From the NCBI GenBank assembly GCA_043814055.1, contig JBDRKL010000012.1:8596-72595 (forward strand): a stretch of DNA of 64,000 nucleotides, given 5' to 3'. Made by a program: the position numbers and the translations under genes. Below are positions 1 to 59,012 of the stretch, in pieces. The notes under the pieces are model-generated. The model did no database searches and had not been told where the DNA came from. It saw nothing but the letters and a program-made list of their open reading frames with translations. How positions within the stretch are numbered: the stretch's first letter is position 1; each line of letters starts with the position of its first letter. The stretch is from an archaeon. Lineage in GTDB: Archaea; Undinarchaeota; Undinarchaeia; Undinarchaeales; JBDRKL01.

Positions 1-281
1 TACCTTGTTTGGCCGTTAACTTCAATCTCAGCGCAGCCACCGTTGCATGGGTATGGGTCCAGCGTAAGAGTGACGTCACCGCAAAGACCGCCGGAACATA
101 ATACTTCAGCGCTGTAACCGAATGCCTGCTGTTGTATGACAGTTGCCGACGTTGAAAGCGGTGTTACAGTCACAACACCGGTAGCGGGAACAGAGCTTTC
201 AATTTGCGCAGATACAGAACCAGCGCAAAGCGTTAAAACTAATACCAAAACCATTATTGAACTCAATACTAAATTCTTCAT
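1..281 (-). CDS. exported protein, N-terminal fragment (gene continues past window start)
   Basis: Own minus-strand translation. ATG at 281-279 is preceded by GGGGAGGT (rc of 284-293). MKNLVLSSIMVLVLVLTLCAGSVSAQIESS... looks like a signal peptide. The frame stays open to position 1. It is absent from the ORF track because the window edge truncates it. Confidence 0.55.
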   Translation of the reverse strand, partial: MKNLVLSSIMVLVLVLTLCAGSVSAQIESSVPATGVVTVTPLSTSATVIQQQAFGYSAEVLCSGGLCGDVTLTLDPYPCNGGCAEIEVNGQTR

Positions 282-479
282 TTGTACCTCCCCAGGTAAA
301 CAATCTCTCAGAGAGAAACTGTGTAGTTAGAGAAGTATGAGTGTGTTTATAAAGATTGTTATTCTCCGGCTGATCCAAACCCACGTAGTGGGTTGGACAA
401 CTCACAAACCCGCCAAAGCGGGTTGCGCAACGCACATCAGTGCGTTTGCGCTGTCGCGAGTTTGTCCCGGAGGAAGAGC

Positions 480-583
480 GTCCCGCATGACGTTGGTTAT
501 GCTGCACAATGAAACGCCAGAGATTTTTAACAGTTTATATTGCTGGCGATTCATTGTGGCGGGACTGCTGAGTAAGTTGAGTG
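480..583 (-). repeat. R-family two-hairpin element (copy R5) in the 23S trailer, carrying a nested 54-nt hairpin (505-558)
   Basis: Minus strand reads CAACTTACTCAGCAGTCCCGC[CACAATGAATCGCCAG...CTGGCGTTTCATTGTG]CAGCATAACCAACGTCATGCGGGAC. It has the same GTCCCGC/GCGGGAC stem and AGCAUAAC-type loop as the copies at 26271-26301 and 26499-26529. Confidence 0.5.
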
Positions 584-660
584 CCATTGGTTAAAGCTCA
601 CGCTCAACTTTGGATCAATTCTAAAAAAATTTTAGAGTGGTCCCGCATAGAGTATGTATT

Positions 661-3610
<2,950 letters not shown>

Positions 3611-3828
3611 AAGTCTACGTCTATGCGGGACCAATGTTACATATTCCCGTGCAGACTAAAGCACGGAATGTAAGGCCGGTCATCGGGCATTGGGCTGTCG
3701 GGAGCCGTACCCTCGAGAACCTCTTCACTCCCACCCCAATAGATCTGGGAGTTGTGTCATCAATGAATTGATGATTGTGATTTCGAAGCGTGAGCTTCGA
3801 AAGACACCCAATTATTTGGGTGTGATGT

Positions 3829-4152
3829 TTAGTCAATTACCCGGCGAGCCACATCTTTTATTTTCTTCGCAGTGTCGTCGTGAAGGTCTTTTGCTGCTTT
3901 CGCTGCTTCGACCATTTTAGTAAGGAGCTTGTCTGCATCTGGCGCCTGCATTAGAGTATGAGATGCCAATGCATCGCTCTCTAGAGAGACTGCAGCTGTA
4001 AGTGCAAGATCTGTTCGGTTCAATGCCAAAATAAGGGACTCAAAATGTTCCCCTGCATCTCTGACATCCTTTTCAGATTCTGTAAGATCTTTTTCTACTT
4101 TGATTAGTGCATCTCTAAATGATTCAATTACTCTTTCTATATCTTCAGACAT
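3829..4152 (-). CDS. hypothetical 107-aa helical acidic protein encoded inside the tRNA-Ala/23S spacer
   Basis: Intact ORF on the same strand as the rRNAs. GAGGTGA lies 7 nt upstream of the ATG (rc of 4160-4166) and a CTTTAAAG box lies ~45 nt upstream. No motif recognised. Confidence 0.6.
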   Translation of the reverse strand: MSEDIERVIESFRDALIKVEKDLTESEKDVRDAGEHFESLILALNRTDLALTAAVSLESDALASHTLMQAPDADKLLTKMVEAAKAAKDLHDDTAKKIKDVARRVID

Positions 4153-4249
4153 TTTTATTTCACCTCGTTGATAGAGTTTCCTCTACTTAATTCTTTAAAG
4201 AACACGCCTTGTATCAGAGGGCGTTACTGCATTATGCAGCTTATTTGAC

Positions 4250-4331
4250 TATGATATGTGCCGAGCAAAGCGAGGCACACAAATTTCGCGTTAGCGAAAT
4301 TTCTTTTGGTCAAACTTTTCGTGAAAAGTTT
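4250..4331 (-). repeat. hairpin + TTGACCAAAAGAAA module (copy M1) directly after tRNA-Ala
   Basis: Minus strand: AAACTTTTCacgAAAAGTTT hairpin (4312-4331), TTGACCAAAAGAAA (rc of 4300-4313), then hairpins ATTTCGCtaacGCGAAAT and TGTGCC..GGCACA. Confidence 0.5.
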
Positions 4332-4334
4332 GAA

Positions 4335-4408
4335 TGGACCCAACGTGATTTGAACACGTGGCCTTCTGCTTGCAAAGCAGACGATCTACCGGACTGATCT
4401 ATGGGCCC
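4335..4408 (-). tRNA. tRNA-Ala (anticodon UGC), no intron, no encoded CCA
   Basis: Hand-folded cloverleaf GGGCCCA-TA-GATC..GATC-G-TCTGC-TTTGCAA-GCAGA-AGGCC-ACGTG-TTCAAAT-CACGT-TGGGTCC-A. The G3:U70 alanine identity pair is present. It sits at the canonical position between 16S and 23S. Confidence 0.92.
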
Positions 4409-4513
4409 AGTTTATGAACCCAGCCTCGGGCTCCAATATGATTATTATTGAGTGACCTGGTGAGAAAAAGACTCCCCCTGTTTAGCCCACAGACTTAGCT
4501 GTGGTGCTTTCTT

Positions 4514-5978
<1,465 letters not shown>

Positions 5979-6268
5979 AATGGGAGAGTTCTTTCTCACC
6001 AGGCCAATTTTTCAGATTCATTCCCCTTAAGGAGAAAGTCCTCACATTTTTTCCCGCGGCCTTGATACAACACGCATACGCCAAGGCATATGCATGTGTG
6101 TCATTCGCCGAAGGCGAACGACAGGTACCCCTCACAGCTTGAAAGAATGAGTGTCGCCACTCCCCGATTTCAGTAGCTAAGGGCCTTCGAAATACGAGAG
6201 GGCCGCGAGTTCTCGTGTAAACGAGAAATTAAAAGCTCTGTTAATATAGAAGGTGGGGTATATAAAGT

Positions 6269-6865
6269 TTACTTCAAAACCGTTCCTGTCTCGCAAAACC
6301 ACAAATACATGTCTAGTTCTGCAAGGTTCATGCCCAGAGTGTCAGCCAATTGCTTCAACTGGGCTTCAATCTCTAAATATCGTGTTCTGCTTAGCGATTT
6401 CGGCTTTTCAATTATGCCATGCACAGCGAGCAAATCAAGTATATGAAAGTCAATTATTGCATAATTCTCATACCCAATATTTCGTAAAAAATGGCTCGCC
6501 TCTTTCATGCCGAGGCCCTTCACATTTTGTACAAGCCAGTCGCGTTCTAAAACCAAATTGTCTTTGAGTTTTCTGGCGTTTACAATATAATTTGCTCTTG
6601 TATTTGGGAATCTATGACCGAGCTCCTTGAGCTTTTTCGCTAGTTGTTTCTCGCTGAGTTTTAGAAAGCCATCTCCAATTTCTTTTTGAATCCTAATCCC
6701 ACCCTCGGCTGTGTAATTCGCGGTGAGGATGCAGAAGCACAATTCTTTGAAAATTTCGTTGCTTGATTTTTTCCCAAGCGATTTGAACTCCTGTAGTCTT
6801 TCAGATATTTGCGAGCTTATATCGTTCGCTTTTAAATTTTCAACCCTGCAAATCAGCTCTTCCAT
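6269..6865 (-). CDS. ogg: N-glycosylase/DNA lyase, Ogg2-type 8-oxoguanine DNA glycosylase (HhH-GPD)
   Basis: 198 aa with a helix-hairpin-helix region, VKGLGMKEASHFLRNIGY, then IIDFHIL. Last gene of the oxidative-stress operon, overlapping dfx by 13 nt. Confidence 0.75.
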   Translation of the reverse strand: MEELICRVENLKANDISSQISERLQEFKSLGKKSSNEIFKELCFCILTANYTAEGGIRIQKEIGDGFLKLSEKQLAKKLKELGHRFPNTRANYIVNARKLKDNLVLERDWLVQNVKGLGMKEASHFLRNIGYENYAIIDFHILDLLAVHGIIEKPKSLSRTRYLEIEAQLKQLADTLGMNLAELDMYLWFCETGTVLK

Positions 6866-9798: not shown

Positions 9799-9990
9799 AG
9801 GTTTTTACCAATGTGCACCGAGATACAAAGCTTTTTTCGTCAACGTTTTTGCGAAGCAAAAAGGTTGGACTTCACACCACCGGGGCAACTTTATGTGCGC
9901 CAGGCAATGTACTTTTCTTTTGGTCAAGCTTTTCTTCGTAAAGAAAAGATTGCCGTTGAGTACACCACCGGGGCAACTTTAAGCTATAGG
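9799..9990 (-). repeat. two tandem 88-bp units, each starting with a copy of the tRNA-Glu 5' end (GCCCCGGTGGTGT)
   Basis: The exact 13-mer occurs at 9786-9798 (real tRNA), 9874-9886 and 9962-9974, a spacing of exactly 88 and 88 nt. Each unit has the tRNA 5' fragment, an A/T hairpin, TTGAC(C/G)AAAA, and a ~41-45 nt spacer. Confidence 0.8.
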
Positions 9991-29276: not shown

Positions 29277-29360
29277 AACCTTTTTTCCCTTGCGATTGGG
29301 GGAAAAAGCTTGACCAAAAATCAGGGGCGTTCGCTCGCTACGCTTGCGAAGCCCCACTTC
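29277..29360 (+). repeat. hairpin + CTTGACCAAAAA module (copy M5) plus a 32-nt GC hairpin in the hisS leader
   Basis: AACCTTTTTTCCCttgcgattGGGGGAAAAAG-CTTGACCAAAAA (29309-29320), then GGGGCGTTCGC..GCGAAGCCCC (29324-29355). Confidence 0.6.
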
Positions 29361-58902: not shown

Positions 58903-59012
58903 CCTTTTTCCGCGAAGGCGCGCAAAAAGCTCAAACACACAAAGTGTGTTGAGCAACACGCTGTCGCGTGTTTGCTTGACCAAAAAAATTCGCTTCGCTC
59001 GAAAGGTAGAAT
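58903..59012 (+). repeat. hairpin module (copy M7): CCTTTTT..AAAAAG hairpin, two covarying GC hairpins, then CTTGACCAAAAAAA
   Basis: AACCTTTTTCCGCGAAGGCGCGCAAAAAG + GCTCAAACACACaaaGTGTGTTGAGC (58929-58954) + AACACGCtgtcGCGTGTT (58955-58972) + TGCTTGACCAAAAAAA. TTGACC lies 37 nt before the ATG at 59013. Confidence 0.65.

Follow-up and report, generated by a model that had tools for sequence, protein, structure and literature searches.

No loci of a cell are transcribed more strongly or conserved better than its ribosomal RNA (rRNA) operons, which are assumed to hold only rRNA and transfer RNA (tRNA) genes, and the locus described here raises the question of how a protein-coding gene can sit inside one and by what route it would be expressed. 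The DNA analysed (the window) is a stretch of 64,000 nucleotides (nt) from an archaeon of the Undinarchaeota (GenBank assembly GCA_043814055.1, contig JBDRKL010000012.1, positions 8,596 to 72,595), and its rRNA operon lies on the minus strand, where 16S, tRNA-Ala and 23S follow one another in the same orientation (Rfam, ARAGORN). An earlier reading made from the letters alone (the sequence-only reading) had described these co-oriented genes, giving no strand, together with a spacer of ~720 nt between tRNA-Ala and 23S and an intact same-strand open reading frame (ORF) of 107 codons within it at 3829-4152; each description was borne out, the spacer measuring 717 nt and the ORF lying on the operon strand. 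We put at roughly 0.5 the probability that this ORF is a genuine lineage-specific gene, carried on an insertion of ~480 nt and expressed through the rRNA operon as one unit. The genome, that of a DPANN archaeon, is a metagenome assembly of ~0.98 Mb in 14 contigs and the sole member of its family in the genome collection. The spacer is probably native, since the contig, of 153 kb, has genes on both sides of it, since further copies of the insert's cassette are found at other places in the genome, and since the codon usage of the ORF matches that of the genome.

The ORF (4152..3829) begins at the first start codon past the upstream stop. Scored with a codon log-odds model trained on 596 long ORFs from the same genome, it reached 0.28 bits per codon, which is the 33rd percentile of real 107-codon gene pieces and exceeds 99% of 393 shadow ORFs, and the other five frames were all negative. 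A perfect 7-nt Shine-Dalgarno (SD) sequence, GAGGTGA, stands at the optimal distance before this first ATG (4166..4160, 7 nt from the ATG, as the sequence-only reading had it), for which chance, taken from the genome frequency, is ~5e-4; the same heptamer is found at SD distance before 24 of the 847 long ORFs, ~60 times its genome-wide (chance) frequency. The encoded protein is acidic (24 D/E vs 16 K/R, net charge -8), rich in Ala, Asp and Leu, almost without Gly or Pro, and predicted to be all-helical, in agreement with the acidic, helical product first described, and its hydrophobic moment peaks at 100-105 degrees (z = 3.7, P = 0.002 vs residue shuffles). Structure prediction, which had been proposed as a check, gave a hairpin of two long helices (AlphaFold2 without an alignment; mean predicted local distance difference test score, pLDDT, 85.5), and judging from this model the hairpin probably dimerises into a four-helix bundle. 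At the RNA level the ORF is the sole unstructured stretch (z = +0.69 vs shuffles) of a hairpin-dense spacer, flanked on the 5' side by 181 nt with seven hairpins (4333..4153, fold z = -5.76) and on the 3' side by 183 hairpin-packed nt (fold z = -5.34). Because codon usage, SD, amphipathic periodicity, structure model and RNA structure are five independent properties, the ORF very probably is, or recently was, genuine protein-coding sequence.

In five genomes of the same order (G002, G003, G004, G007 and G010), the spacers between tRNA-Ala and 23S are 137-319 nt long and the slot is empty. These short spacers align only with the last ~220 nt of the 717-nt spacer, from ATCACAATCATCAATTCATTGATGA to the 23S stem, and the alignment shows no counterpart in them for the ~480 nt that carry the ORF. 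Since these ~480 extra nt are absent from same-order relatives, the ORF came on a lineage-specific insertion, which together with the good coding signatures agrees with the earlier claim that a gene had been inserted into a canonical operon. The insert starts directly at the tRNA-Ala 3' end with a cassette composed of a hairpin and TTGACCAAAAGAAA (4333..4300), found where the sequence-only reading had placed it, on the 5' side of the ORF. The three tight hairpins reported to follow the ORF ahead of the 23S processing stem were also recovered (3823..3757; stem 3606-3645 / 626-665), and the second and third of them sit in spacer sequence that aligns with the relatives that have no ORF. Both processing stems are intact, forming long inverted repeats around 16S and 23S. 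Just 5' of the 23S stem, a C-GATGA motif that is invariant and a TAACATTGGTCC element were seen in all members of the order (window 3646-3700); in the pre-23S leader they may serve as processing elements or as C/D-like boxes.

Whether the operon is one transcription unit or two was judged from its promoter and terminator signals. Leaderless genes appear to be in the majority in this genome: TATA-like words peak at -35..-26 relative to the ATG, and a strong SD precedes only ~15% of genes. A weight matrix for the transcription factor B recognition element (BRE) and TATA box was built from 345 sites upstream of these mostly leaderless genes; on it, random positions have their 99.5th percentile at 4.0 bits and real sites their median at 10.7 bits. 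The CTTTAAAG box noted upstream of the ORF in the sequence-only reading is present (4200..4193), and as a TATA box it was rejected: it scores -4.8 to +4.3 bits depending on register, without an A-rich BRE, and forms the centre of a perfect 12-nt palindrome, TTCTTTAAAGAA, which is one of the seven hairpins of the 5' flank. Its place at the centre of a palindrome in a hairpin array makes RNA structure the better reading. The rest of the spacer stays at or below 6.6 bits, vs 16.3 for the rRNA promoter. On the operon strand, runs of at least five T occur at two places only in 6.1 kb, in the 16S stem and as T7 after the 23S stem, and none falls between tRNA-Ala and 23S. A run of T5-T6 is the length expected to terminate archaeal RNA polymerase; such runs lie in the 5' arm of 21 copies of the cassette, and the tRNA-Ala copy is one of two with only T4, a matching change in the 3' arm keeping its hairpin intact. 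Because the box scores at background and is palindromic, no run of at least five T lies inside the spacer and the cassette has only T4, read-through into a single pre-rRNA that contains the ORF is favoured. If the gene is real, these signals make its co-transcription with the pre-rRNA somewhat the better supposition and a split transcription unit rather doubtful, and they weaken the earlier suggestion that the inserted gene divides the operon.

The proposed sequence of events is as follows. With the gene placed between the tRNA-Ala trailer and the conserved pre-23S leader and the operon otherwise intact, the whole unit would be transcribed from the promoter at 6273..6258 to the T7 run at 629..623. 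16S and 23S would be excised at their processing stems, and RNase P and tRNase Z would free tRNA-Ala. The tRNase Z cut at the tRNA-Ala 3' end and a splicing-endonuclease cut in the 23S stem would then release a spacer RNA of ~0.7 kb with seven hairpins at its 5' end and five in its 3' part, and these hairpin arrays may protect the ends. In this RNA the SD and ORF would be single-stranded, ribosomes would initiate at GAGGTGA-N7-AUG, and expression of the protein would be coupled to rRNA synthesis. The features on which this scheme draws are collected in Table 1.

Table 1. Features of the rRNA operon and of its inserted ORF, from the promoter to the presumed end of the transcript (window positions).
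Feature	Position	Strand	Evidence and remarks
rRNA operon promoter, BRE/TATA AGTAAACTTTATATAC	6258..6273	-	16.3 bits, top match in 6400..300 on the genome's own BRE/TATA matrix
16S processing stem, 5' arm	5992..6021	-	inverted repeat with 4438-4467; cofold helix >25 bp
16S rRNA	4514..5977	-	Rfam RF01959, 1506.6 bits, full length
16S processing stem, 3' arm	4438..4467	-	inverted repeat, cofold; T5 run at 4469-4465
tRNA-Ala (TGC)	4334..4409	-	ARAGORN and Rfam
tRNA trailer cassette: hairpin CAAACTTTTC-AC-GAAAAGTTTG, then (TTG)ACCAAAAGAAA; T-run only T4	4300..4333	-	genome-wide copies compared
Six further small hairpins in the array, including palindrome TTCTTTAAAGAA (4202..4191)	4167..4299	-	RNA fold
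Shine-Dalgarno GAGGTGA, 7 nt 5' of ATG	4160..4166	-	complementary to 16S 3' end (..GATCACCTCCT)
Orphan ORF, 107 codons, acidic protein predicted as helical hairpin	3829..4152	-	ORF call, codon usage, structure model
Three tight hairpins 3' of the stop codon	3757..3823	-	at 3823..3804, 3802..3781 and 3774..3757
Conserved 3' spacer part, beginning with ATCACAATCATCAATTCATTGATGA	3646..3785	-	common to same-order relatives and G014 (alignment)
23S processing stem, 5' arm (TAACATTGGTCCCGC kept in all relatives)	3606..3645	-	inverted repeat, alignment, cofold
23S rRNA	655..3616	-	Rfam RF02540, 2708.7 bits, full length
23S processing stem, 3' arm	626..665	-	inverted repeat, cofold
T7 run, likely operon terminator	623..629	-	only T>=5 run on the operon strand besides the 16S-stem one

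A number of results weigh against a genuine gene expressed from the pre-rRNA. The length of the ORF is not significant alone, because 7-11% of random 717-nt sequences of the same composition hold an ORF of at least 107 codons (P 0.07-0.11); combined with SD, codon usage and amphipathic periodicity it is significant. The protein, called unrecognisable in the sequence-only reading, is an orphan. A search of 5.8 billion clustered proteins recovered nothing but its own sequence. HMMER on 1.8 billion representatives gave one additional match (P0002, E = 3e-5), which falls within a beta-rich tandem repeat of a surface protein of 2212 aa and was rejected as spurious. No homologue appeared when 60 other genomes, among them the remaining 16 of the phylum, were searched in six frames, and scans of metagenome and genome contigs found no relatives. 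The ORF is absent from the five same-order spacers, and the ORF seen in this position in G014 (below) is unrelated. A canonical 3-4-3 bulge-helix-bulge (BHB) is not obvious in the minimum-free-energy fold of the 23S stem. On the side of transcription, the lack of any T5 run across 717 nt carries no significance alone, as about one is expected; the word TTTAAA stands at -47, and a TATA-like word is found there in 23 of the 70 SD-led genes that are not internal to operons; a strong SD is only weakly associated with an operon-internal position (49% vs 39%, p = 0.05), and use of the SD as a marker of operon-internal genes was dropped for this reason. Finally, the cassette elsewhere ends stand-alone tRNA genes, and could for that reason terminate transcription after tRNA-Ala.

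The explanation that survives best beside co-transcription, although we consider it unlikely, is a split operon, in which the insert brought both a terminator-type cassette and a weak promoter (TTTAAA, 4199..4194): 16S and tRNA-Ala would form one transcript, the ORF would have a leader of ~18 nt with read-through into 23S, and its promoter would at the same time be the 23S promoter. At least 10 stand-alone tRNA genes do have the cassette after their 3' end, TTTAAA shows an 8.9-fold enrichment at TATA positions, the TATA-like words of SD-led genes peak at -45..-36, matching the -47 seen here, and no terminator lies between the ORF and 23S. Experimental precedent exists in Borrelia burgdorferi (PMC3037291), where 16S-tRNA-Ala is likewise followed by a non-rRNA insert before 23S and is transcribed apart from 23S-5S; in that bacterium the gap spans several kb and three transcripts were shown by experiment to be separate, whereas here the gap is small and the sequence leans to one transcript. 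Separated genes are also found in the sister family (G001 and G009), with 16S and 23S fully apart and 3.5-4 kb of genes between them. The matrix score of the box, which is at background level, the lack of an A-rich BRE, its place at the centre of a perfect palindrome in a hairpin array, and the T4 of the cassette in place of T5-T6 all tell against a split, under which, moreover, 23S, the most heavily transcribed gene, would rely on a near-background promoter.

The hairpin/TTGAYCAAAA cassette is a genome-wide tRNA trailer module with ~24 hairpin-type copies, mostly directly 3' of tRNA genes. It takes the form CAAMCTTTTT..AAAAAGYTTGAYCAAAA (window examples at 4300-4333, 9914-9950, 29300-29340 and 58940-58990), and several copies are arranged in tandem, each preceded by a duplicated tRNA 3' end, with three in a row after tRNA-Thr on contig C10. 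The cassettes resemble oligo-T terminator hairpins that have spread by inserting at the ends of tRNA genes. Many tRNA genes of the genome (Thr, Leu, Pro, Asn, Ser) are without a TATA box; in its place, (T)TGTCAAC(T) stands 14-20 nt ahead of the mature 5' end and is itself preceded by a GC-rich hairpin, as is seen in the window upstream of the tRNA at ~26328. In tRNA-Glu and tRNA-His, TTGACCAAAAGAAA is found 32-41 nt upstream, and the genome may thus have tRNA promoters of an unusual kind. A 'tRNA-Pyl' with a CTA anticodon, called outside the window at contig C12:115016 by ARAGORN with intron search, may be a miscalled intron-containing tRNA.

Another possibility, which we regard as improbable and which fits either model of transcription, is that the ORF is cargo or a remnant of a mobile element that targets the ends of tRNA genes, much as archaeal integrative elements or this lineage's hairpin cassettes do, its presence reflecting an insertion preference and no link to rRNA. 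The insert does open at the tRNA-Ala 3' end with a cassette that elsewhere accompanies duplicated tRNA 3' ends in tandem copies, an unrelated gene occupies the same slot in G014, and 22 nt at the distal border (3777-3798) are 73% identical to the tRNA-Ala T-arm. These 22 nt, however, overlap the ATCACA element, which is ancestral spacer in the relatives without the insert and is therefore no target duplication; the 15-nt repeats that surround the ORF are no more than chance would give; genes for an integrase, transposase or nuclease are lacking; and the ORF shows no PHROG or PADLOC match and is, with the rest of the insert, single-copy. Of the hallmarks of a tRNA-targeting integrative element, neither a direct repeat of the tRNA 3' part at the far border, for which the sole candidate overlaps ancestral spacer, nor an integrase gene or fragment was found. 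That the spacer grew by junk or hairpin-cassette insertions and that the frame is a chance product or decaying remnant without a useful protein is slightly less probable again: the unremarkable length, the absence of the protein from all relatives and the demonstrable colonisation of this genome's spacers by hairpin cassettes would fit, and the SD before the first ATG, codon usage in the real-gene range (top 1% of shadow ORFs), amphipathic periodicity and unstructured RNA stand against it.

Having set these alternatives beside the preferred reading of a co-transcribed gene, we return to the protein. The searches yielded nothing significant in Pfam, NCBIfam, PHROGs, PADLOC or PDB sequences, no paralogue was found, and apart from the 34-nt cassette no part of the insert, its ORF included, has a second copy in the genome. 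Foldseek against the PDB returned generic helical hairpins only (ROP, CHMP4B, prefoldin), none at E <= 0.001. No match to an endonuclease domain (LAGLIDADG, GIY-YIG, HNH, PD-(D/E)XK) was found in the protein, and an rRNA intron or homing-endonuclease gene was rejected on that ground, on the helical-hairpin fold and on the spacer location. A divergent member of PF05635, the four-helix-bundle proteins of 23S intervening sequences (IVS), was considered after one was seen in G009 and was also rejected. Such proteins resemble the present one in being small, all-helical and encoded within rRNA genes; they differ from it in that no sequence or profile similarity exists (no Pfam match, no BLASTP match and an hhalign probability of 0.1%, from a comparison that used a 23-member PF05635 alignment), in that genes of the family lie inside 23S and this ORF is a spacer gene, separated from the 23S 5' end by 213 nt and not within the processing stem, and in that a two-helix hairpin is predicted in place of a four-helix-bundle monomer.

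The true PF05635 gene of G009, a DPANN genome of the same order, (119 aa, E = 6e-38) lies inside its 23S (L025, G009:C22, ~600-1152, minus strand), ~40 nt past the conserved 23S 5' end, on an insert of ~480 nt with long flanking inverted repeats. Its closest homologues, at ~50% identity, are bacterial (Solitalea, Psychroflexus, Omnitrophota), and from these features the insert looks like an IVS or intron with an intervening-sequence protein (IVP) gene acquired by an archaeon.

The slot between tRNA-Ala and 23S holds a gene in a second genome. In G014, of the same phylum and another order, an unrelated ORF of 87 aa with four CxxC pairs occupies the same position (530..267, minus strand, of the stretch G014:C8:4350-5150); it is annotated only as a hypothetical protein, matches the double zinc ribbon families DZR_2 (Pfam, E = 5e-6) and DZR (E = 6e-5), and was a singleton orphan in homology searches. 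It begins 40 nt past an intron-containing tRNA-Ala and ends 6 nt before the conserved ATCACATTCATC..GATGA element. The same slot is thus filled in two orders by small genes that are not related to each other, each a same-strand ORF between tRNA-Ala and the pre-23S element, and it is empty in the five same-order relatives named above. From this distribution, the spacer would appear to be a place where new small genes land and may be expressed. A survey was made of 61 archaeal genomes, in roughly 36 of which 16S and 23S are on one contig. Among these, the 16S-23S gap is 120-480 nt in most, 700-910 nt in the genome studied here (G000, 897), G014 (711), G030 (725) and G060 (908), and 3.5-4 kb in G001, G009 and G059; 16S and 23S are fully unlinked in G025, G029 and G052. 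The mid-sized spacers of G030 and G060 have no convincing ORF, and the contig of G016 stops short of the spacer.

Cases of interrupted or unlinked rRNA genes have been amply documented, above all in DPANN archaea (10.1101/705046; ISME J 2020, Brewer et al.; PMC8997704, Juttner and Ferreira-Cerca). The locus resembles them in that protein-coding DNA intervenes between 16S and 23S and in that the archaeon has a small genome and probably depends on a host, and the sister family shows the complete state: in G001, 3.5 kb with genes on both strands separates 16S from 23S (L024, G001:C47, 651-4118) and encodes NUDIX, tRNA-binding-domain, CAP-domain and nitrilase-family proteins together with an opposite-strand tRNA, so that the operon is fully broken up, and in G009 the gap is ~4 kb. 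The present operon differs in that its gap of 897 nt falls within the canonical limit for linked genes (<=1500 nt) and short of that used by Brewer et al. for unlinked ones (>1500 nt), in that it holds one same-strand gene, in that stems, tRNA-Ala and pre-23S leader are intact, and in that no credible second promoter was found. By these signs it looks like an operon still working as one unit, or like the first step of unlinking.

In model archaea, spacer pieces are ligated and persist after BHB cleavage (PMC7038931); this machinery would be able to free a spacer RNA that runs from the tRNA-Ala 3' end to the 23S stem, with the difference that the known spacer products are non-coding. No description of a translated mRNA made by archaeal pre-rRNA processing was found in the literature searched, nor one of an archaeal rRNA operon that is otherwise intact and apparently one unit and that holds one SD-led gene at a slot which unrelated genes reuse. 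Messenger RNAs linked to tRNAs in polycistronic transcripts are found in the E. coli tufB operon and in the tRNA punctuation of mitochondria. There the mRNA 5' end is created by tRNA 3' processing, as it would be here; those transcripts are not rRNA operons, and here the downstream boundary would be an rRNA processing stem.

A wider and tentative extension, drawn from the two occupied slots, is that the stretch between the tRNA-Ala trailer and the pre-23S leader in DPANN archaea is a recurrent 'free expression' slot, in which unrelated small genes would land, be transcribed by the rRNA promoter at the rRNA level and be translatable only through tRNA 3' processing and stem excision. The recurrence of unrelated small genes in two orders makes this idea testable by comparative genomics and metatranscriptomics, and the locus is of relevance for annotation pipelines that mask rRNA operons and for typing based on the internal transcribed spacer. 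The finding is of more interest if expression from the pre-rRNA is true. If the ORF is translated, part of a pre-rRNA spacer would serve as mRNA, its expression tied to ribosome production, and the locus would capture the first step from a linked operon to the unlinked arrangement common in DPANN and Asgard archaea. If the extension to DPANN archaea is also true, mRNA biogenesis and the fixation of new genes would have a route that relies on the machinery of ribosome biogenesis, and the 107-aa hairpin protein and the zinc-ribbon protein of G014 would be made in step with ribosome synthesis.

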